59,474 nt of DNA from an uncultured Erysipelotrichaceae bacterium (GCA_948439995.1 CAOJNP010000004.1:1-59474); one strand, 5' to 3'; positions 1-12,373 are shown, counted from the first letter of the stretch. Made by a program: numbers and translations. The notes: generated from the sequence alone by a model not told the origin.

Positions 1-1
1 A

Positions 2-181
2 CAAGTAAGACAGATTGGATCATGGTATCAAGACGAAGCCTGGTTTGTCTATACTACTGAACCTTGGTTTATACGTGGTCATGAGTTTCTTGGTGGAGCT
101 TGTGTTGGAGTGTTTGCTTTGGGTCATTCTCTTGGTAGTATGTTTTCATGGGCTGGTTTTCGCGTCGTGCTAGCGCTTTAG
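2..181 (+). CDS. DGR target protein, 3' end only (C-type-lectin-like variable C-terminus); truncated by the window start
   Basis: Frame 2 reads QVRQIGSWYQDEAWFVYTTEPWFIRGHEFLGGACVGVFALGHSLGSMFSWAGFRVVLAL*, stop TAG at 179-181. It ends in the GFR motif typical of CLec-fold DGR targets and contains the VR. Confidence 0.85.
   Translation, partial: QVRQIGSWYQDEAWFVYTTEPWFIRGHEFLGGACVGVFALGHSLGSMFSWAGFRVVLAL
41..164 (+). repeat. DGR variable region (VR)
   Basis: Identical to 2941-3064 except at 4 nt (122-123 GG vs AA; 143-144 TT vs AA), all of which are adenines in the repeat copy. Confidence 0.92.
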
Positions 182-186
182 CGCTA
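171..186. promoter_or_regulatory. Hairpin just 3' of the VR/IMH (candidate DGR target-recognition stem-loop)
   Basis: TAGCGC-TTTA-GCGCTA, perfect 6-bp stem with 4-nt loop. It follows the VR and is absent after the TR copies. Confidence 0.65.
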
Positions 187-253
187 ACTCTGCTTTTGTA
201 AAATTAAATCGAAGAAGTGGATTAAAATTAAAAGAAAAATCTATGAATGTTTG

Positions 254-352
254 AAGCCTTTCGCTCCCTTTTTGGCGAAAGGCTTTTGCAGTTTTCTACC
301 AGCGTTAGCTGGTAAAAAAAGTATGCGCTTTTCCGTTTTGGGAAAAGCGCAT
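254..352. other. Three consecutive GC-rich hairpins
   Basis: AAGCCTTTCGC/GCGAAAGGCTT (254-285), TACCAGC-GTTA-GCTGGTA (297-314), ATGCGCTTTTCC/GGAAAAGCGCAT (323-352). Confidence 0.75.
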
Positions 353-387
353 GTAAATTTTTTTTTCTACGAAGAGTTCGATTTAAT

Positions 388-416
388 TTGACATTTTTCG
401 CAAATAACAATATAAT
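388..416 (+). promoter_or_regulatory. Consensus sigma-A promoter for the DGR accessory-avd-RT operon
   Basis: TTGACA (388-393), 17 bp spacer, TATAAT (411-416). Confidence 0.8.
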
Positions 417-713
417 TTGAATAGGAAGGAATAGAAAATATTTTTTCTAAACCTTTCTTCAATTACAGGATTTAAAATATAATATTGGTTTTCAAAAAGT
501 CTCAAAAAAATCGTCCTGTTTTTGAGTAGTAAGATGTAATATCAAATGTTTTTACATTTGGTAGTGTTATAAGAGTTGGTAGTTTTTACTAGCTCTTATT
601 TCATCCTTTTGGAAAAATTCTTTGTTTTTCAAAGTTATGGTCGAATTCTTCCAAGTCAATTTAAATGAATTTTAGCAGTACATGATTTTTGTATTGCTTT
701 TTTTTGGAGGTAA

Positions 714-1100
714 ATGATGAGTAAAATTTATGAAAAATATCTTGCATTAAAAGAAAGTGATCCAGATAAATTATATTTATTTCGTTGTGGAAACTTTTAT
801 ATCTTTTTAGCAGATGATGCTGATTTTATTAATAATTATGTTGTATTAAAACGAACAAAATTTTCAAAAGAAGTGATGAAATGTGGTTTTCCCGTGGGAA
901 GTAAAGAAGAATATTTAAAAGTATTTGAACATCAAAATTTAAAAATTGAAGTAATTGAAAATCCATTGTTGCCAGTAGAAATTAGTGAACGAGAAAAATT
1001 TGTTGTAAATTATTTAAAAAATATAGAAATCAATATGCTTACACCGATTGATGCAATTAATAAATTAAAAGAATTACAGGAGATGTTTTATGAATCATAA
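714..1100 (+). CDS. MutS domain-I-like small DGR accessory protein (MSL type)
   Basis: YLALKESDPDKLYLFRCGNFYIF resembles the MutS N-terminus (FRMGDFYELF). C-terminal NMLTPIDAINKLKELQ resembles the MutS C-terminal helix. GGAGG RBS; overlaps avd. Confidence 0.7.
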   Translation: MMSKIYEKYLALKESDPDKLYLFRCGNFYIFLADDADFINNYVVLKRTKFSKEVMKCGFPVGSKEEYLKVFEHQNLKIEVIENPLLPVEISEREKFVVNYLKNIEINMLTPIDAINKLKELQEMFYES

Positions 1101-1464
1101 AGAAGAAACAAAAACTGTAGAAGATTTAATTATCTATAAGCAATATATTGAATTAATTTATTATACCGAAAATATATTAATGAAATATCCAAAATGTGAA
1201 AGATTTGCATTAGCAAGTACGATTAAAAATGCTACTTATGAGGGAATGCGATGTGTTATAAATGCATTTAAAGAATATAATCGTGATCAAAAATTATCGA
1301 ATTTAAATCATTTAGATACGACTTTAAAAATGATTAAAGTTATGATCAGAGTATCTTACAAAAAAAGATATATTAATGCAAAAAATTATACAGCATGGGG
1401 GAAAAAACTGGCTAATTTGGGTAACTTGCTTGGAGGATGGATGAAATCATGCCTAAAACAATAA
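1090..1464 (+). CDS. avd: DGR accessory variability determinant (Avd-like four-helix bundle)
   Basis: 124 aa with YPKCERFAL and terminal LGNLLGGW motifs; directly upstream of and overlapping the RT gene. Confidence 0.88.
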   Translation: MNHKEETKTVEDLIIYKQYIELIYYTENILMKYPKCERFALASTIKNATYEGMRCVINAFKEYNRDQKLSNLNHLDTTLKMIKVMIRVSYKKRYINAKNYTAWGKKLANLGNLLGGWMKSCLKQ

Positions 1465-2477
1465 GAAATGTTTATGATGAAAAATTAACATTTATTAAAC
1501 TTTTAGAGGCTCATGAACGCGCAAGTAAAAATAAAAAAAATCATAAAGATGTGATTTTATTTGAAATGGATTTAGAAAGTAACATTGCGAATTTATTACA
1601 TAAAATAAAAACAGGAACTTATCGTATGGGGAAATATCATGAATTTTATGTGTATGAACCAAAGCAAAGACTGATTAAAGCACTACCTTATGTTGATCGA
1701 ATTGTGCATCAATGGTATGTAGAAGAATTTATAAAACCATATATGGCACCCCGATTTATTTTTACTAGTTTTGCATGTATTGAAGAAAGAGGTGCCCATA
1801 AAGCAGTGGATTTTTTACAGAAATATATGAGAATAATGAAACGAAATTATGGCAATTATTATATTTTAAAATGTGACATCAAAAAATATTTTTATAATAT
1901 TGATCGTAACATTTTATTTCAAATTTTATCTCGTTATATTTCGGATAAAAAATTACTTGATTTTACAAAGTTATTATTATTTGATGAACCAGAATCTATT
2001 GGAATTCCAATTGGAAATTACACGAGTCAGTATTTTGCCAATATTTATTTAAATGAATTAGACCATTATGTGAAGGAGAAACTAAGAGTCAAATATTATT
2101 TAAGATATATGGATGATTTTATTTTGCTTTGTAAAACAAAAGAAGAAGCAAGAGAATATAAGAAGATTCTTGAAGAATTTCTTTCTTTTAAATTACATTT
2201 AGAATTTAACAAAAAAACTAGATATTATCCAAATAGTATGGGAGTAGATTTTTGTGGATATAAAGTTTTTGAAACACATCGTTTAATACGAAAAAGAAGT
2301 AAAGATAAAATGCGACGTCACATTAAAAAGTGGAATAAAAAGTATCGTTTAGGAACTTTAGATTTAAAAGAAGTAGAACAAAGTTGGAATGCGTGGCTTG
2401 GACATATTAAACATGCAAATTGTTATACTCTTCAAAATCGTTATCATGATTTAATGGAGTTTCGAGACATCTTTTAG
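1449..2477 (+). CDS. DGR reverse transcriptase
   Basis: KCDIKKYF, GIPIGNYTSQYFANIYL (SQ motif of DGR RTs), YLRYMDDF, GVDFCGY. About 342 aa with no maturase or endonuclease domain. Confidence 0.95.
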   Translation: MPKTIRNVYDEKLTFIKLLEAHERASKNKKNHKDVILFEMDLESNIANLLHKIKTGTYRMGKYHEFYVYEPKQRLIKALPYVDRIVHQWYVEEFIKPYMAPRFIFTSFACIEERGAHKAVDFLQKYMRIMKRNYGNYYILKCDIKKYFYNIDRNILFQILSRYISDKKLLDFTKLLLFDEPESIGIPIGNYTSQYFANIYLNELDHYVKEKLRVKYYLRYMDDFILLCKTKEEAREYKKILEEFLSFKLHLEFNKKTRYYPNSMGVDFCGYKVFETHRLIRKRSKDKMRRHIKKWNKKYRLGTLDLKEVEQSWNAWLGHIKHANCYTLQNRYHDLMEFRDIF

Positions 2478-2540
2478 GAAATTTTGTCAAAATCATTTTT
2501 ATTCTTTTAAAAGAGTGATACATTTTTTATGGTGAATAAA

Positions 2541-2768
2541 ATGAATTTATATTATCAAAATGAGACACTTTTTATTGATGTAAATGGTATTTTAGATGAA
2601 GAACATATGAAATATTTAAAACGAAAAATCTTTCGAATTGTAGATGATTATGATATTAATCATATTATTCTTAGAAGTTATCCTAATAATTTAGAATATA
2701 AAAAAATGTTTCAGCAAATAAAAAAAGAATATAATCAAAAATATACGGGATATTTTGTCATAAGATAA
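2541..2768 (+). CDS. Small protein resembling the N-terminal half of STAS/SpoIIAA
   Basis: TLFIDVNGILDEEHMKYLKRKIFRIVDDYDINHIIL parallels the SpoIIAA IRLTGELD...LKQKV...DIRHIVL pattern, but has no DSSG phosphoserine motif. Confidence 0.45.
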   Translation: MNLYYQNETLFIDVNGILDEEHMKYLKRKIFRIVDDYDINHIILRSYPNNLEYKKMFQQIKKEYNQKYTGYFVIR

Positions 2769-2940
2769 TTTAATTTGTCTTTCTTTTATCCCTTAATATG
2801 ATTTTAGTAATATTTTTCTAAATATATAGTATGCTTTTTTCTTTCATGTAGTAAGAATTCTTAGAGTGGTTTCGCAGAAATTTATTAAATTATTTGAAAA
2901 TTTAAATTTTAATGTTATATTTATTAGGGATTACGATAAG

Positions 2941-3064
2941 TGGTTTGTCTATACTACTGAACCTTGGTTTATACGTGGTCATGAGTTTCTTGGTGGAGCT
3001 TGTGTTGGAGTGTTTGCTTTGAATCATTCTCTTGGTAGTATGAATTCATGGGCTGGTTTTCGCG
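2941..3064 (+). repeat. TR1, cognate template of the VR at 41-164
   Basis: 120/124 identical to the VR; all mismatches are at TR adenines. Confidence 0.9.
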
Positions 3065-3237
3065 ATAGTAACTATGATAAATAAAGTTTAAAATTAATTT
3101 ACGAATTAATAAAGAATTGTCATAGAGTTGTAATTCCATTTCTTCGGAATAAATACATTTAATTATTAAAACAAGATTAGTAAAAATATTCGAACTTTTT
3201 GTTTTATATTTTACTTTGTTTCATGGGATTATAACAA

Positions 3238-3361
3238 AGGTTTGTCTATACTGCTCAGCCTTGGTACACTCGTGGTGGTGTGTTTTCAGTCGGCATTGGT
3301 GCTGGAGTGTTTGCCATTCATCCTAATCATGGTAGAGTGGATCTGGCTTATGGTTTTCGCG
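3238..3361 (+). repeat. TR2 cassette
   Basis: Same length and scaffold as TR1; translates RFVYTAQPWYTRGGVFSVGIGAGVFAIHPNHGRVDLAYGFR. Confidence 0.8.
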
Positions 3362-3533
3362 ATAGTAACTATGATAAATAAAGCTTAAAATTAATTTACG
3401 AATTAATAAAGAATTGTCATAGAGTTATAATTCCATTTCTTCGGAATAAATACATTTATTATTAAAACAAGATTAGTAAAAATGTTTGAACTTTTTGTTT
3501 TATATTTTATTTTGTTTCATGGGATTATAACAA

Positions 3534-3657
3534 AGGTTTGTCTCTACTGTTCAGCCTTGGTTTCTCCGTAGTGGTGGTCATTTTATTGGATTGGATGCCG
3601 GAGTGTTTGCCATTGGTCGTGCTTTTGGTAGTGTGGATCCAAACATTGGTTTTCGCG
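3534..3657 (+). repeat. TR3 cassette (downstream spacer diverged)
   Basis: Translates RFVSTVQPWFLRSGGHFIGLDAGVFAIGRAFGSVDPNIGFR. Only ACTATGATAA of the spacer is retained downstream. Confidence 0.78.
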
Positions 3658-3732
3658 GTTTTATACTATGATAATTTAATTATGACAAATAAGTTTAAGG
3701 ATTTAATTCATTTTAGAAGAAAATAAATTCAT

Positions 3733-3768
3733 AAAAAAATAAGGTATAAACAAAATACCTTATTTTTT
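3733..3768. terminator. Bidirectional intrinsic terminator between the TR array and the symporter gene
   Basis: AAAAAATAAGGTAT-AAACAAA-ATACCTTATTTTTT. Confidence 0.65.
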
Positions 3769-3774
3769 CTTTTT

Positions 3775-4971
3775 CTATTCTTTTAATAATTTTTCAATAA
3801 ACATGGTTGATGGAACATCGCCTGTTGCATTTAAACATGTTGCTGGAGCATCAATGAGCCATGCAATAGTTGTTAATAATATATAAGCTGAAGTTGGAAA
3901 ACCAAAAATAGATAATATTAATAATTCACTAATTAAACCACCTGATGGAATTCCTGACATTGCCATGCAAATAAATGTTGCAAGTAAGAGTGTGATTAGT
4001 ATATTTGGAAGTGTAAAGAAATTTTTTCCATAGATTGCGAATAAAAACATTACTTTTAAAACAGTTCCCATACTTGAGCCTTCCATGTGAGTAGCAGCAC
4101 CTAACGACATACTAACACTACTTATTTCGTTTTTCACTTTTAATTTTTTTGCAGCTTCAATATTGATTGGTAGTGTTGCAAGAGAAGAACAGGTAGCAAG
4201 TGATGTAAAAGCAGAACTTGAAATGTGTTTCCAAAGATCTTTTACTCCATTTTTTCCTCTACTTAAAACCGCATATAAACTATAGAATAATGCAAAATAA
4301 ATAACACATGCAATTAAATAAATGACGAGATAAGATGCATAGGAACCGATCAATTCGGGACCCATTTCTGCAATGAGATTTGCAAAGTAAGCACAAATTC
4401 CAATTGGAGCATAATACATAATGATATCAATTACTTTTAGTAAAGCCTCATTTCCACCTTCTAATAATCTTTTTACGGTTTCCCCTTTTTCTTTTGCAGC
4501 AGCAACGCCAAAACCTACTAAGCAAGAGAAAATAATCAGTGGTAATAAATGTTTTCTTGATAATAATTCTGAGAAATCTGAAACAGTAATGGTTTCAACA
4601 ATTTTTTCTTTGATATCAATATTTTCTACTTCTAAGTTTTCAGTTGGTATAGGGTTGTCTATTTTTGGTCTCGCAAGTGAGAGTGTTCCCATCATGAAGA
4701 TAGAACTAATTAAACTTGTTGTTAAAAATACAATAAGTGTTGTGCGTACAATTTTACCAAATTTCTTTCCTGAACCAAATTTTGCAATGGAACTTGATAT
4801 TAAGAAAAAAACAAGCGGTACTACGATGGTAAATAATAAATTGATGAAAATATCTCCTAAGGGTTTGATGATGCTTACTTGTTCTTTTAAGAAAATTCCG
4901 AGTAAACATCCAATTATCATGGCAATAATTAATACAATTGATGATTTCCATTTGATTTTTATCTTTTTCAT
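3775..4971 (-). CDS. Dicarboxylate/amino acid:cation symporter (DAACS/SDF family)
   Basis: Multiple TM helices with motifs KPLGDIFINLL, TCSSLATLP, LGAATHMEG, GIPSGG, LNATGD. Confidence 0.9.
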   Translation of the reverse strand: MKKIKIKWKSSIVLIIAMIIGCLLGIFLKEQVSIIKPLGDIFINLLFTIVVPLVFFLISSSIAKFGSGKKFGKIVRTTLIVFLTTSLISSIFMMGTLSLARPKIDNPIPTENLEVENIDIKEKIVETITVSDFSELLSRKHLLPLIIFSCLVGFGVAAAKEKGETVKRLLEGGNEALLKVIDIIMYYAPIGICAYFANLIAEMGPELIGSYASYLVIYLIACVIYFALFYSLYAVLSRGKNGVKDLWKHISSSAFTSLATCSSLATLPINIEAAKKLKVKNEISSVSMSLGAATHMEGSSMGTVLKVMFLFAIYGKNFFTLPNILITLLLATFICMAMSGIPSGGLISELLILSIFGFPTSAYILLTTIAWLIDAPATCLNATGDVPSTMFIEKLLKE

Positions 4972-6219: not shown

Positions 6220-7095
6220 ATGATTACCGCTGAAATGGTAAAGAATTTAAGAGAAACAACTGGTGCAGGCATGATGGATTGTAAAAAAGCACTTGCAGAA
6301 TGCAATGGAGATATGGAAGCTGCTGTCGATTATTTAAGAGAAAAAGGAATTGCCAAAGCGAATAAAAAAGAATCTCGTATTGCAGCAGAAGGTTTATCAA
6401 ATATTTTTATTGATGGAAATAAAGCCATCATATTAGAAGTAAATTCTGAAACAGACTTTGTAAGTAAAAATGATGAATTTAAAGAAATGATTGAAGAAAT
6501 TGGGAAAACAATTTTAAGTGGTAATGCAACTACTTTAGAAAGTGCTTTAGAACTTCAAACAAAAGAAGGAACAATTCAAGATTTAATTGTTTCTAAGACT
6601 GCTAAAATAGGAGAAAAATTATCTCTTCGTCGATTTGAAGTTTTAGAAAAAGAAGACAATGAAGTATTTGGAGCTTATTTACATTTAGGAGGTAGAATTG
6701 CAGCATTATCTGTTTTATCAAGTACAACAGAAGAGATTGCCAAAGATGTTTCTATGCAATCTGCAGCAATGAGTCCAAAATATGTTTTCCGTGAAGAAGT
6801 TCCAGCTGATGAAGTAGAAAGAGAAAAAGAAATCTTAAAAGAACAGGCAATGAATGAAGGAAAACCTGAAGAAATTGCTATGAAAATGGTAGAAGGAAGA
6901 CTTCATAAATTCTTCAAAGAAATTTGTCTTAGTGAACAAGCTTTTATTAAAAATGGCGATATGGATGTTGCTACTTATGTAAAAAATCATGGTGGTACGA
7001 TTAAAAAAGTAGTTCGTTATGAAGTTGGCGAAGGAATGGAAAAAAGACAAGATGATTTTGCACAAGAAGTTATGAATCAAGTGAATGGAAATTAA
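6220..7095 (+). CDS. tsf: Elongation factor Ts
   Basis: LRETTGAGMMDCKKAL, EVNSETDFV. Confidence 0.98.
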   Translation: MITAEMVKNLRETTGAGMMDCKKALAECNGDMEAAVDYLREKGIAKANKKESRIAAEGLSNIFIDGNKAIILEVNSETDFVSKNDEFKEMIEEIGKTILSGNATTLESALELQTKEGTIQDLIVSKTAKIGEKLSLRRFEVLEKEDNEVFGAYLHLGGRIAALSVLSSTTEEIAKDVSMQSAAMSPKYVFREEVPADEVEREKEILKEQAMNEGKPEEIAMKMVEGRLHKFFKEICLSEQAFIKNGDMDVATYVKNHGGTIKKVVRYEVGEGMEKRQDDFAQEVMNQVNGN

Positions 7096-7171: not shown

Positions 7172-7774
7172 ATGAAAGTAGAAAAAAAACCAATGTCAAT
7201 GACTCAGAAAATAATTTATGCCCTTTGTTTTATTGGATTAATATGGGCTTTTATTTTTTTGGGAACAAGAAATTATAAAGTAAAAGAATTAACCGATTCA
7301 GAATTATTTAGTAAAGAATATAAAACCATTTCTGAAAATAATTTATTTCAAGTTTTCAATTCTTCGGAAGCATTAACATTTTTAGAAAAAGGAACTGGAA
7401 TTTTATTTTTCGGTTTTCCAGAAAATAAATGGAGTAATAGTATTGCAGAAATGTTACATGAAGTTAGTTTAGAACAAAACTATTCCATTTCTTATTTTAA
7501 TTTTTTAGAAGAACGTCAAAGTCGTCATGATAATTATATTGGTATGATTCGTGAAATGGATGATTATTTAAGAAGTGATGATGAAGGAAAACTAAATATA
7601 TATGCTCCTATCATTGTTTCTGTAATTCATGGAAAAGTAATCTATTTTGATGATCAATTTACTTTTGTAAATAATCATTTGGATCCAAAAGATTATTGGA
7701 CTGCAGAAAAAAAAGAAGAGTTTATGAATCGTTTGCGTCACATCATAAATGAATTAAAAGCGGTAGAAAAATGA
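7172..7774 (+). CDS. Membrane-anchored protein, probable Cys-less thioredoxin-like fold
   Basis: N-terminal TM; GTGILFFGFPENKWS at the usual CxxC position; YAPIIVSVIHGK. Confidence 0.55.
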   Translation: MKVEKKPMSMTQKIIYALCFIGLIWAFIFLGTRNYKVKELTDSELFSKEYKTISENNLFQVFNSSEALTFLEKGTGILFFGFPENKWSNSIAEMLHEVSLEQNYSISYFNFLEERQSRHDNYIGMIREMDDYLRSDDEGKLNIYAPIIVSVIHGKVIYFDDQFTFVNNHLDPKDYWTAEKKEEFMNRLRHIINELKAVEK

Positions 7775-8235
7775 GTTCGTTTCAAAAAAATATTTTCACC
7801 AAACAACAAATCTTTTTTTGTATTTTTTCTGTTTTCTTTTTTCTTTTTCTTCTTTGTGGTGATTGGATTGTTACAAGATTTATTCCAGTTAATCCCAATC
7901 AAGAATATTTTTTAAATTCTAAATTAGAACAAGATGATTTGATTGAAATTTCCCTAGAAGAAGCATTTCATCTCATTTTAAGCGAAGAGCAAATTAATTT
8001 ATTATTTATAGAAAAAGAAAAAATTAATTCGGTCGAAAAAATGAAACATTTAGAATCTCTTTATTTTGTAGATTTAAATACTATTCATCAAGATGAAAAA
8101 ACATTTTTAACTTTTCGAGAAAAAATTCCAGAAATAAAATTGGAACAATCGAGTTTTTTTTCCTTTCAAAATGGTGAATTAAAAGAATATTATGAAGTAG
8201 TCAGTGAAAAAAATGATACCATAAAAGAATCGTGA
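7771..8235 (+). CDS. Hypothetical membrane-anchored protein
   Basis: N-terminal TM; ATGA overlap with the previous gene. Confidence 0.55.
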   Translation: MSSFQKNIFTKQQIFFCIFSVFFFLFLLCGDWIVTRFIPVNPNQEYFLNSKLEQDDLIEISLEEAFHLILSEEQINLLFIEKEKINSVEKMKHLESLYFVDLNTIHQDEKTFLTFREKIPEIKLEQSSFFSFQNGELKEYYEVVSEKNDTIKES

Positions 8236-11315: not shown

Positions 11316-11933
11316 ATGATACTAAATTTATTCACCAATGCAATTGCAAAAATTTGGCCAATGTTAACAATTTTTTTGGTTGTTATTATTGCCATTCGTG
11401 TTTCTTATTTACGGATCAATCATGAAAAGTTTGTGTTTTATCGTGAATTTTGGAATCTTATTTTTGTAATATATGTTTTAATTTTATTTCAATTATTAAC
11501 AGATTCTGAAGTAAATACAACAGGTGGGTTAAATTTAGTTCCTTTTACAGAAATGTTTCGCTATAAATTAGGAAGTCCTTTATTTTATTCTAATGTCATT
11601 GGCAATATTGCTATTTTTGTACCATTTGGATATTTTGTCTCTAGCTATATTCATGCTAGTAAAATCAGCCATATTTTATTTATTAGTATTATAAGTAGTT
11701 TTACAGTCGAGTTAGTTCAGCTTCAAATCGGACGTAGTTTTGATGTTGATGATATTATTTTAAATGTAGTTGGAGCAGTTATTGGTTTTCTTCTTTTTAT
11801 TGCATTAAATGCAATTAAAAAACATTTACCACGTTTTTTTCAAAGTGATGTTTTTTATAATTTGATTTGCATTTTGTTTTGTCTGATCTTTTTAATTTAT
11901 TTTACAAAAATTATGGGATTAGGGTGGTTTTAA
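11316..11933 (+). CDS. VanZ family membrane protein
   Basis: NLVPF, GNIAIFVPFG, ELVQ, RSFDVDDIILN. Confidence 0.88.
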   Translation: MILNLFTNAIAKIWPMLTIFLVVIIAIRVSYLRINHEKFVFYREFWNLIFVIYVLILFQLLTDSEVNTTGGLNLVPFTEMFRYKLGSPLFYSNVIGNIAIFVPFGYFVSSYIHASKISHILFISIISSFTVELVQLQIGRSFDVDDIILNVVGAVIGFLLFIALNAIKKHLPRFFQSDVFYNLICILFCLIFLIYFTKIMGLGWF

Positions 11934-12373
11934 TGGATTCCGTTTTGATTAATGATGAATATGGTTATCAAAATTATGATTATTTACATGATGTCATTAA
12001 AGCAACGTTAAAGCATGAAAAAGCAGAAAATAGTATTTTGTCGATTATTTTTGTTGATGAAGAAAAAATTCAGGATTTGAACCGAGAATATCGAAATATT
12101 GATCGTATTACGGATGTTATTAGTTTTGCTTTTGAAGATACGAAAAATACTCTGCCAAAAGAAATACGTGTTTTAGGAGACATTTATATATGTATTCCGA
12201 AAATGATATTACAAGCTCGTGATTATGGTCATAGTGAGAAAAGAGAACTTTCTTTTTTAACAGTTCATGGTTTACTACATTTGCTTGGTTATGATCATAT
12301 GAAAAAAGAAGAAGAAGAAATTATGTTTCCCTTGCAAGAAGAAATTCTTTCTAGTATGGGTATTATAAAATAG
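11933..12373 (+). CDS. ybeY: rRNA maturation endoribonuclease YbeY
   Basis: TDVISF, LGDIYI, HGLLHLLGYDH. Confidence 0.96.
   Translation: MDSVLINDEYGYQNYDYLHDVIKATLKHEKAENSILSIIFVDEEKIQDLNREYRNIDRITDVISFAFEDTKNTLPKEIRVLGDIYICIPKMILQARDYGHSEKRELSFLTVHGLLHLLGYDHMKKEEEEIMFPLQEEILSSMGIIK

Follow-up and report, generated by a model that had tools for sequence, protein, structure and literature searches.

The question raised by this locus is whether a DGR, whose textbook layout relies on one invariant template (TR), can work from several. The window (i.e., the whole stretch of 59,474 nt that was analysed) belongs to the assembly of a mouse-gut bacterium (G000), a metagenome bin of 52 contigs that is 90.6% complete, and the DGR occupies window positions 1–3775. 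The system departs from the one-TR norm: the 3′ end of the target gene with its variable region (VR), a MutS-like gene, avd, the reverse transcriptase (RT) gene, and a small ORF are followed by three template-type units, with the following features.

2–181, + strand: 3′ end of the target gene, a listed ORF truncated by the contig start
41–163, + strand: VR of 41 codons, equal to the core of the first unit (TR1) except at four template adenines
171–186, + strand: GC-rich target-type hairpin (6 bp, 4-nt loop; hairpin scan), beginning 7 nt after the VR and, by position and structure, a candidate for the IMH role
321–354, no strand assigned: terminator-like hairpin 3′ of the target gene (terminator scan)
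388–416, + strand: sigma-70-type promoter-like site upstream of the MSL-avd-RT operon, a consensus match (12 of 12 positions) of a kind found 27 times against 28 expected from shuffles
714–1100, + strand: small MutS-domain-I protein, an MSL-type DGR accessory gene (Pfam MutS_I, E 1.3e-11)
1090–1464, + strand: avd, accessory variability determinant (Pfam bAvd, E 9e-21)
1437–2477, + strand: reverse transcriptase (Pfam RVT_1, E 2.7e-18)
2529–2768, + strand: 79-aa ORF between the RT and the array, with no Pfam family
2927–3137, + strand: template module 1, the template of the VR (R1 match at 3053–3139, 68.4 bits)
3225–3434, + strand: template module 2 (R1 match at 3350–3436, 66.9 bits)
3521–3657, + strand: template-like unit 3, with a GGGATT box (3521–3531) and the TR3 core (3534–3656)
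3735–3772, + strand: AT-rich hairpin with a trailing T run, 3′ of the last unit (seen on folding the TR3 flank with RNAfold)

Homologues of the MSL-type gene, a class of DGR accessory genes described by Wu et al. 2018 (PMC5758913), were found in 51 related loci, and Avd scored 81.2 bits against the NCBIfam model NF033474 (DivGenRetAVD; cut-off of 80). The RT was single-copy in the assembly (tblastn of the genome) and had a group II intron RT as its nearest NCBIfam model, below cut-off and in a library that holds no DGR-RT model; its relatives occur at loci whose TR/VR pairs are adenine-specific (L049, L074, and L076). DGR RTs bear an SQ motif, for which the sequence IGNYTSQ in the corresponding region of the window RT is a candidate. 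The remainder of the target gene was located at the end of contig C28, as a 3′-open ORF of 525 aa that overlaps the window ORF, and the complete target protein counts 566 aa (P0001; 100% identity over the query). The target stop codon (179–181) begins 16 nt past the end of the VR.

An earlier note had described three units with a period of 296–298 bp behind the RT, and the anchors GGTTTGTCT and GGTTTTCGC, situated at 42/155 (VR), 2942/3055, 3239/3352, and 3535/3648, indeed yielded periods of 297 and 296 bp (Tandem Repeats Finder on the window: period 296, 1.9 copies). Modules 1 and 2 share one layout, i.e., the 5′ half of a P1 duplex (2927–2937 and 3225–3235), a core (TR1 at 2941–3063, with CGCG ending at 3064, and TR2 at 3238–3360), the two arms of a P2 stem (3072–3080 / 3117–3125 and 3369–3377 / 3414–3422), and the 3′ half of P1 (3127–3137 and 3424–3434). 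As a correction to the note, unit 3 carries no P2/P1 3′ element and no match to R1, our model of that element, and TR3 may be inert. Recomputed over 123 nt, TR1 and TR2 differ at 40 positions, as had been counted (TR1 and TR3 at 41, TR2 and TR3 at 36), the core differences being spread over all codon positions (15/14/11) and all bases. All three cores are free of stops in the target frame, again in line with the note, and 15 of their 41 codons are invariant, rather than the 13 given there. The two complete spacers show the six differences noted before (96.6% identity), yet measure 174 and 173 nt instead of about 161 nt. Finally, the VR was confirmed to differ from TR1 at four positions (122, 123, 143, and 144), all of them A in TR1 and within two AAT codons (chance of 4/4 of about 6e-4); when the wildcard is set to C, G, or T instead of A, all four remain mismatches.

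The doubt that the array might be an assembly artefact was dispelled because Logan contigs of other samples bridge the units, i.e., from TR1 to TR2 in X9 (record 30, 2853–3268, two differences) and from TR2 to TR3 in X6 (record 23, 3333–3543). Moreover, unitigs of X1 span 3132–3800 without a single difference. Unit 3 itself varies between samples, with 18 differences over 3515–3800 in X4 and X6.

The library extends beyond the three units of the window locus. For its one RT, G000 holds ten template-like units, i.e., the three in the window and seven in RT-less arrays (C3/C49 and C47) that sit far from the RT, and eight of the ten carry the full 3′ RNA element (eight R1 matches), at odds with the textbook layout. 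A comparison of array copy number across relatives, all of them metagenome bins, returned 2–50 R1 matches in eight of ten other same-genus genomes, and in G009 a single row of 57–58 cassettes (ca. 12 kb) lies downstream of the RT. Since arrays are located at contig ends, these repertoires are incomplete and may include misjoins. RT orthologues were present in seven of the ten same-genus genomes; the two genomes without an R1 match also have no RT, and modules are restricted to genus members with an RT or, in one case, with an incomplete genome.

Each complete unit in the window carries the RNA helices seen around the single TRs of related canonical DGRs. In the G009 array, where P2 stands behind each of the units, 85.9% of P2 cells were paired (vs. 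72% in shuffles), with 66 double-change cells that none of 500 shuffles matched, and across 43 diverse modules P2 was 93.8% paired with 54 double changes, likewise reached by 0 of 500 shuffles. In eight canonical relatives, a P2-type stem follows the single TR but not the VR (judged by eye). The 11-bp P1 duplex was examined in 40 units (30 distinct sequences), where pairing with the unit's own partner occurred at 4.90 of 6 variable positions, vs. 3.40 with the partners of other units. Compensatory changes maintain both P1 and P2 in units from six species. A stem-loop and a duplex around the TR have been tied to cDNA synthesis, and both structures are widespread (207 of 278 Avd-DGRs; Handa et al., bioRxiv 10.1101/2023.10.23.563531). 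The DGR RNA of Bordetella phage BPP-1 similarly has a stem-loop just past the TR and an upstream/downstream duplex, equivalent, by position and length only, to the P2 (9 bp) and P1 (11 bp) of the window; in contrast to BPP-1, however, P2 encloses ca. 45–60 nt rather than a tetraloop, and each cassette has its own copy of the element.

The cassettes, although they lie outside any ORF, are also constrained at the protein level. In the target frame, stops occurred in only 10 of 115 cassettes, as opposed to 61 and all 115 in the alternative frames (i.e., 105 open cassettes vs. 54 and 0), scaffold residues are conserved, and the scaffold glycines (codons 19 and 32) are encoded by four synonymous codons. 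Cores that diverge at one position in three while flanked by 96.6%-identical spacers, yet keep frame, scaffold, and synonymous glycines, point to selection on the encoded product. The TR-specific helices, the open target frame, and the occurrence together with an RT thus support reading the extra units as template-type modules, and not as VRs or debris.

It bears weighing whether these units are mostly inert duplicates, with a few active ones (TR1, C49b, and the upstream TR of G009) and the others drifting under weak or past selection without a role. The incomplete unit 3 would agree with this, as would the long G009 array, where both P1 boxes were found in 5 of 68 units, most units have no P1 duplex, and 8 of 63 cassettes contain in-frame stops. 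The same holds for the low number of AAY codons in the cassettes of G000 and G009 (on average 1.5 and 1.7, respectively) and for the scarcity of imprints in VRs: a single one of 11 gene tails in G003 was related to any of its 26 modules (C43, whose match to a module from an array without an RT leaves 15 mismatches at A and 4 at non-A positions) and none of seven in G005 to any of its 21, so that most modules have no visible product in these comparisons, which omit the RT-adjacent VRs at contig ends. Nevertheless, inert duplication appears improbable in view of the divergent yet frame- and scaffold-keeping cores between near-identical spacers, the compensatory changes in P1 and P2, and the G001 and G006 cassettes, which average 8.1 and 7.1 AAY codons.

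The nearest single-TR relatives (L056, L048, L058, L073, L071, and L030, from related uncultured gut Bacilli) are canonical MSL-bearing DGRs, i.e., Architecture D as outlined by Wu et al. 2018 (PMC5758913). Like the window DGR, they have a target whose VR is C-terminal, the MSL-avd-RT operon, TR-to-VR differences that are specific to adenines, a GC hairpin behind the VR (and none behind the TR), and a TR framed by the GGGATT box, the P2 stem, and the AATTCC box. In these relatives, however, one TR lies between the target and MSL, where the window DGR has none; window-type DGRs instead carry modules in tandem behind the RT and in RT-less arrays, at 8–50 per genome. [quoted passage not shown]

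Several units seem to have served as templates, parts of them having apparently been copied into target genes, judging from how particular VRs relate to particular modules. The last 75 nt of VR_C37 (positions 50–124) differ from module C49b, which lies in the RT-less C3/C49 array, at seven positions, all seven at A (15 A in 75 nt, P of about 3e-6), and TR2 is the best donor for positions 1–46 of this VR (3 non-A and 2 A mismatches). In the related lineage L049, the VR is a mosaic of two TRs with nine of nine differences at adenines: one TR accounts for positions 1–62 (0 non-A, 7 A), another for positions 63–123 (0 non-A, 2 A), with control wildcards (C, G, or T) leaving 8–9 mismatches and TR vs. 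TR comparisons 9–19. In G009, one VR allele equals the upstream TR (0 non-A and 10 A mismatches over 104 nt), the other allele matches this TR over its last 60 nt only (0 non-A, 8 A), and the two best donors are complete modules outside the long array. The claim that this DGR possesses more than a single template is thus borne out, by structured units that are open in the target frame and by segments of several templates in VRs. The further idea that whole segments are swapped in and then tuned at adenines agrees with L049 and with VR_C37/C49b, but a search of the G000 assembly found no adenine-only VR partner of TR2 or TR3, the best VRs leaving 15/106 and 22/108 non-A mismatches, respectively.

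Comparison of contigs and unitigs between samples revealed both TR1-derived and non-TR1 VR alleles of the same target gene. P0001, a second allele of the target, has two codon differences from TR1 that are adenine-reachable and none of 41 codons that is not, and an X4 contig running into the unique flank (154–1216) starts with a non-TR1 core. In P0121, which is 94% identical to P0001, 13 of 41 VR codons are unreachable from TR1; this protein comes from another strain, whose own template set may differ from that of G000.

A multi-TR DGR with fixed pairs, of the kind that surveys have recorded, in which each template would have its own target, the partners of TR2, TR3, and other units would be absent from the incomplete assembly, and no switching would occur, could accommodate the at least 18 paralogous tails of G000, the breakage of contigs at VRs and arrays (which may leave partners unassembled), and L074 and L076, in each of which one VR matches one of 3–4 TRs with 0 non-A mismatches. 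We nevertheless find fixed pairing unlikely. TR1 marks VR_C4 as well as VR_C15, whose first 62 nt equal both TR1 and VR_C4 without adenine change, and VR_C37 and, in part, VR_C15 bear the mark of C49b, which resembles the end of VR_C15 (the second half of this VR leaves 4 non-A mismatches to its best donor), so that the mapping of templates to targets is many-to-many. The two alternatives of the earlier note, switching and separate targets outside the window, do not exclude each other: such targets are served by templates too, and targets are also served from templates that lie outside the window. The clean two-TR mosaic of L049 and the TR1-type and non-TR1 alleles of the RT-adjacent target also run counter to fixed pairs, and dedicated partners are not in sight for four of the seven G000 tails compared, which leave at least 19 mismatches to every module, or for nearly all of the 18 tails of G003 and G005.

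Silent-cassette systems of antigenic variation (i.e., Borrelia vlsE/vls, Neisseria pilE/pilS, and the tprK donor sites of Treponema pallidum) copy faithfully by DNA recombination, and chicken immunoglobulin pseudogene conversion with hypermutation provides an analogy. The array cassettes share with them promoterless, frame-keeping partial cassettes with a conserved framework (cf. the 105 of 115 open cassettes), variable patches, and segmental mosaics in the expressed copy; unlike them, window-type donors bear retroelement RNA structures and adenine differences, and their arrays accompany an RT. Gene conversion, with the arrays as homologous-recombination donors and the RT used only for adenine mutagenesis from TR1, would suit the segments that VRs share with one another, as cassettes do, and that are bordered by conserved blocks, the adenine-unchanged start of VR_C15, and the remoteness of arrays from the RT, but is very unlikely, given that the named donors differ from their VRs at adenines only (4/4, 7/7, and 9/9) where copying should be faithful, that recombination donors would have no need of TR-type helices kept by compensatory changes, and that genus members without an RT have no modules.

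We consider it reasonably probable that the DGR works from a library of template modules, with one RT/Avd/MutS-like set serving many. A module would open with an upstream box made up of GGGAUU and 5 further nt, followed by a coding-competent cassette of 123 nt and by P2 (a stem of ca. 9 bp starting 5–12 nt past the cassette); it would close with a downstream box, 5 nt and then AAUUCC, whose pairing with the first box forms P1. Such modules would stand in tandem behind the RT, as do the three in the window, and in arrays remote from any RT. Each module RNA would be reverse-transcribed with misincorporation at adenines, after which the cDNA would replace a 3′-anchored part of the VR in one gene among several paralogues that encode surface proteins, and a scaffold block common to all cassettes would be the site of the 5′ junction. 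Because replacement at shared scaffold blocks would be partial, VRs would become mosaics of templates plus adenine changes. In this view, distant modules would be served by the RT in trans, and the mosaics presumably arise by partial retrohoming instead of recombination; TR2 and the many modules without a visible VR partner would likewise be active, with active switching between templates. If so, the piecewise use of many cassettes would greatly widen the writing range of the mutator.

A bolder extension of this library, to which we attach little likelihood, is that the arrays form a heritable, evolving repertoire, with one RT drawing on tens of modules genome-wide and joining pieces of their templates at scaffold blocks, which would add combinatorial diversity to adenine mutagenesis, and with successful VRs possibly being written back into modules. 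Such write-back would, if true, explain why cores diverge at a third of their positions between near-identical spacers, and why certain cassettes of the G009 array resemble copies of the upstream TR mutagenised at adenines, a signal that is confounded since the variable sites are adenine sites. The earlier description of the cores as pre-diversified found no support.

DGR variable proteins typically adopt a C-type-lectin-like fold; the target protein had no Pfam family and no PDB match by sequence profile. Two AlphaFold models reached mean pLDDT values of 63.6 and 60.7, being poor over the VR domain (below 50 in the VR part), and with these low-pLDDT models Foldseek placed the Thermus DGR variable protein 5vf4 at rank 2–3, a weak match (E of 0.14–0.19). 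Downstream of the last unit, the hairpin at 3735–3772 is possibly the end of the operon transcript; it was absent from the terminator scan list because it has too few G-C pairs. The 79-aa ORF showed a faint, below-threshold similarity to STAS/anti-sigma-antagonist proteins, and a homologue was present 3′ of the RT in seven of seven same-genus loci and in L050.

As DGRs are understood, the adenines of one fixed template set the variable codons, and the framework and all non-adenine positions are frozen. The DGR of the window, located at 1–3775, has three template-type units, and comprises the following features:

2–181, + strand: last 59 codons of the target gene, with the 41-codon variable region (VR)
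41–163, + strand: VR, 41 codons
171–186, + strand: 6-bp hairpin after the VR
321–354: terminator-like hairpin
388–416, + strand: promoter-like site (consensus match)
714–1100, + strand: small MutS-domain-I gene (MSL)
1090–1464, + strand: avd
1437–2477, + strand: RT
2529–2768, + strand: 79-aa ORF
Within 1–3775, + strand: three tandem units, then an AT-rich hairpin with a T run

The tandem arrangement of three differing template cores (TR1–TR3, 123 nt each) described in the earlier note was borne out by remeasurement, with unit periods of 297 and 296 bp, 40, 41, and 36 of 123 nt differing between cores, 6 differences in 174 nt between the two full spacers, and a VR that departs from TR1 at only four adenines, in two AAT codons. 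Its count of 13 codons invariant among the cores should read 15. Since contigs from three other studies span the TR1–TR2 and TR2–TR3 junctions, the array is real and not an assembly artefact. The upstream part of the target gene was found at the end of contig C28, and the full target protein (allele P0001) counts 566 aa. Two structure models of this protein were of low confidence, Foldseek returned nothing at E ≤ 0.001, and no match was found in the PDB by sequence. A scan for unit promoters yielded 27 sites vs. 28 in shuffles (i.e., no excess), and no promoter is therefore claimed for single units; a 10/12 promoter-like site with TG extension from this same scan is located at 2894–2921, 5 nt upstream of the GGGATT box in unit 1.

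The source organism is an uncultured, small-genome member of the gut Bacilli from mouse gut samples, and its assembly (G000) spans 1.14 Mb in 52 contigs (90.6% complete). Seven further units of the same build came to light when the full assembly was searched by motif and by adenine-tolerant scanning, i.e., two at the end of contig C3, three at the start of C49, and two on C47. Because their spacer ends match, the C3 and C49 units probably form one array between ordinary genes. By tblastn, the assembly contains only one RT, one avd, and one MSL, and ~18 genes with related C-terminal tails (contigs with such paralogous tails being C8, C10, C12, C17, C18, C23, C24, C25, C29, C35, C40, and C44, plus C4, C15, and C37, with C4 being the window). 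R1, a covariance model built from the 3′ element of the unit, recognises eight of the G000 units as complete modules; in TR3, the upstream box is present and the 3′ element is missing, and unit C3b is truncated by the contig end. A putative tRNA-like sequence lies directly upstream of the two-unit C47 array (L003, ~2255–2509, – strand), and the C3 array begins at the stop codon of the gene before it, which together suggest read-through transcription.

The units are template modules, in which the cassette is surrounded by two RNA helices. The stem of the first (P2) starts 5–12 nt past the CGCG end of the cassette, opening with ACUAU and closing with AUAG around ~45–60 nt. Across 49 spacers of the same-genus genome G009, 85.9% of cells were paired (vs. 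72% when shuffled and 34–47% when slid), with 66 double-change cells, and in a set of 43 modules drawn from six species plus three canonical relatives the paired share was 93.8%, with 54 double changes, a number of double changes that 0/500 shuffles matched in either set, with the reservation that these shuffle controls are inflated by relatedness and that the structure was derived from the same sequences. Despite this inflation, the low slid controls and the varied stem sequences argue in favour of P2 as a real helix. In the second helix (P1, 11 bp), GGGAUU and 5 variable nt, located 10–25 nt upstream of the cassette, are complementary to 5 variable nt and AAUUCC after P2. Among 40 units with 30 distinct upstream sequences, pairing with the own partner reached 4.90 of 6 variable positions, vs. 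3.40 with the partners of other units. Related canonical DGRs likewise have both helices around their only TR, whereas their VRs bear a short GC hairpin instead. Most units of the long G009 array carry P2 without P1. Handa et al. (bioRxiv 10.1101/2023.10.23.563531) describe two RNA elements around the TRs of 207/278 Avd-DGRs, i.e., a stem-loop just downstream of the TR and a duplex of upstream and downstream segments, and connect them with cDNA synthesis. P2 and P1 match these elements in position, the equivalence being one of position and length only.

The imprint of the modules on target genes was examined by painting every VR with modules from the same genome, leaving donor-adenine mismatches free and penalising donor switches, with C, G, or T as free letter in the controls.

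Donors of VR segments (non-adenine/adenine mismatches)
G000 VR_C4 (window VR), whole length: donor TR1, 0/4
G000 VR_C37, 50–124: donor C49b (C3/C49 array), 0/7
G000 VR_C37, 1–46: closest to TR2, 3/2
G000 VR_C15, 1–62: donor TR1, identical
G000 VR_C15, remainder: resembles C49b, 4/4
L049 VR, 1–62: donor TR at 7561, 0/7
L049 VR, 63–123: donor TR at 7899, 0/2
L076 VR, 22–125: donor TR at 12034, 0/12
L074 VR: one of its TRs, 0/10
G003 C43 tail: module of an RT-less array, 4/15

Judging from these alignments, several modules seem to have been copied piecewise into VRs. The adenine-only match of VR_C37 50–124 (15 A in 75 nt) has a P of ~3e-6. In L049, an RT locus of another lineage, other wildcards left 8–9 mismatches and TR-against-TR comparisons 9–19, and nt 1–21 of the L076 VR are identical to another TR copy, at 11836. 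The G009 scaffold contains two VR versions separated by a 10-N run (G009:C1 ~143,230–143,480; L027 12228–12480), probably reflecting population VR heterogeneity collapsed into one scaffold. The first version matches the upstream TR along 104 nt, with 0 non-A and 10 A mismatches. In the second, this TR accounts for the final 60 nt only (0 non-A, 8 A), and the initial 64 nt most resemble a complete module located on a different contig (4 non-A, 8 A).

The earlier note had also considered that TR2 and TR3 might have VR partners of their own. When G000 was scanned in full with TR1–TR3 and the seven further units, tolerating adenine mismatches, no adenine-only partner emerged for TR2 or TR3, the best candidates showing 15/106 and 22/108 non-A mismatches, respectively. 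Moreover, only C4, C15, and C37 among the seven painted G000 tails relate to any module at the DNA level, as do one of 11 gene tails to any of 26 modules in G003 and none of seven to 21 modules in G005 (RT-adjacent VRs excluded in both). Such sparse matching would follow from a small number of active target loci, each showing only its last one or two donors, and is equally well accounted for by idle modules.

Alleles were also compared across samples. In P0001, a second allele of the target in the window, two adenine-reachable codons are the only departure from TR1, and P0121, a 94% identical allele from another strain, has 13/41 VR codons that cannot be reached from TR1 and is closest to C49b (7 unreachable codons). 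In sample X4, a contig running into the unique flank downstream of the window VR (154–1216) starts with a core that aligns to TR2 and not to TR1, with 44 nt on TR2 at ≥88% followed by 7 nt unexplained by TR2; TR3, C49b, and C47a (another RT-less-array unit) all fit its last codons via adenine changes. In sample X9, a contig continues from the 5′ part of the window VR into sequence identical to the central part of C47a. The donors of the X4 and X9 contigs cannot be named with certainty, and VR stretches without coverage in X4, X6, and X9 were not counted alone as evidence. Joints 41→3239 in X4 and X6, considered as a TR2-derived VR, were rejected, as they fit the paralogous C37 VR, with which the 5′ flank is common. 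In these same two samples, the flank of the C24 paralogue is preceded by a TR2-aligned core, unlike the C24 tail in G000. Outside the VR, P0001 and P0121 differ at 11/16 residues in 285–300 and at only 6 positions elsewhere, so that residues 285–300 look like a second hypervariable patch, for which no template is known.

An RT with cassette arrays is a layout that characterises the genus. Of the 10 other same-genus genomes, 7 have RT orthologues (79–88% identity), and every RT contig carries cassette arrays that reach contig ends (19, 11, 10, 7, and 5 nhmmer matches). In G009, the RT is located on a 237-kb contig and, together with the small ORF, is followed by 57–58 cassettes with a ~200-bp period over ~12 kb, with more arrays on three other contigs. 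Per genome, R1 matches numbered 8 (G000), 15 (G001), 0 (G002), 27 (G003), 0 (G004), 24 (G005), 10 (G006), 2 (G007), 4 (G008), 50 (G009), and 9 (G010), and G002 and G004 (each ~90% complete) are also without RT. The largest RT-less array observed, L231 (G003:C2 58,430–63,979), has ~20 R1 matches with a ~290-bp period at the end of a 64-kb contig.

Smaller arrays also occur in other lineages of the group. Iterated nhmmer on 83 RT loci revealed further small arrays in L049 (7 copies), L076 (5), L074, L055, and L064 (4 each), and L068 (3), and closer analysis covered L049, L076, and L074. At 6837–9030 of L049 (RT 61% identical), a VR precedes six tandem TRs upstream of MSL-avd-RT, each TR keeping an IMH-like flank and an ACTATGA motif; TR-like copies number four in L076 and three in L074. 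Among relatives, the canonical arrangement of a single VR with a single TR predominates. A family-wide R1 search with strict filters (28 candidates scored per genome) gave matches in 4/151 genomes and missed known canonical TRs of relatives, and is therefore no proof of absence outside the genus. An RT search of metagenome contigs found no same-genus locus, the best match being partial at 70% identity.

Despite lying in no gene, the cassettes are constrained as coding sequence. In the target frame, 10/115 cassettes contain in-frame stops, vs. 61/115 and 115/115 in the other frames. Scaffold positions F2, V3, W9, R12, G19, F25, G32, and S39-F40-R41 are 92–98% conserved in G009, and all four synonyms are used for glycine codons 19 and 32. 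AAY codons average 8.1 and 7.1 per 41-codon cassette in G001 and G006 (rich), and 1.5 and 1.7 in G000 and G009 (poor). In a confounded test of the G009 array as an archive, its cassettes had a median residual of 22 against three N-rich complete modules with A as wildcard (28–31 with other letters), and only 4 fell below 10. Rates of module evolution differ between strains; TR3 and its flank (window 3515–3800) show 18 differences in X4 and X6, some of them non-adenine in the core, and the TR1–TR2 stretch in X9 shows 2/416.

The system shows all the testable hallmarks of a DGR apart from the single template, and its donor-library logic resembles silent-cassette antigenic variation. If true, interchangeable structured templates combined piecewise would lift the frozen-framework limit, and the accessible sequence space would multiply the choice of cassette by the choice of junction and by adenine mutagenesis. 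Elsewhere, two-tier logic of this kind is familiar from the antigen-variation systems of vertebrates and pathogens. A DGR RT could then also use template RNAs encoded far away, which matters for engineering multiplexed DGR mutagenesis, and for annotation because DGR pipelines, as outlined in PMC11661182, seek one TR near the RT and discard extras. MSL-type DGRs are a described architecture (PMC5758913). Supplements and subscription journals aside, we found no published account of structured TR modules arrayed in their tens, whether in tandem or dispersed, or of VRs as two-TR mosaics. The group to which the organism belongs, gut Bacilli with reduced genomes, has received little study, and a notable share of a 1.1–1.4 Mb genome in it goes to such modules (up to 50) and to the ~18 paralogous genes encoding surface proteins.

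Finally, the ORF directly 3′ of the RT (75–79 aa; e.g., window 2529–2768 and L027 9171–9398) is present in 7/7 same-genus loci with 41–53% identity. A homologue in L050, a locus without cassette array, rules it out as an array-specific factor. The ORF bears a faint, sub-threshold similarity to anti-sigma-factor antagonists (STAS).
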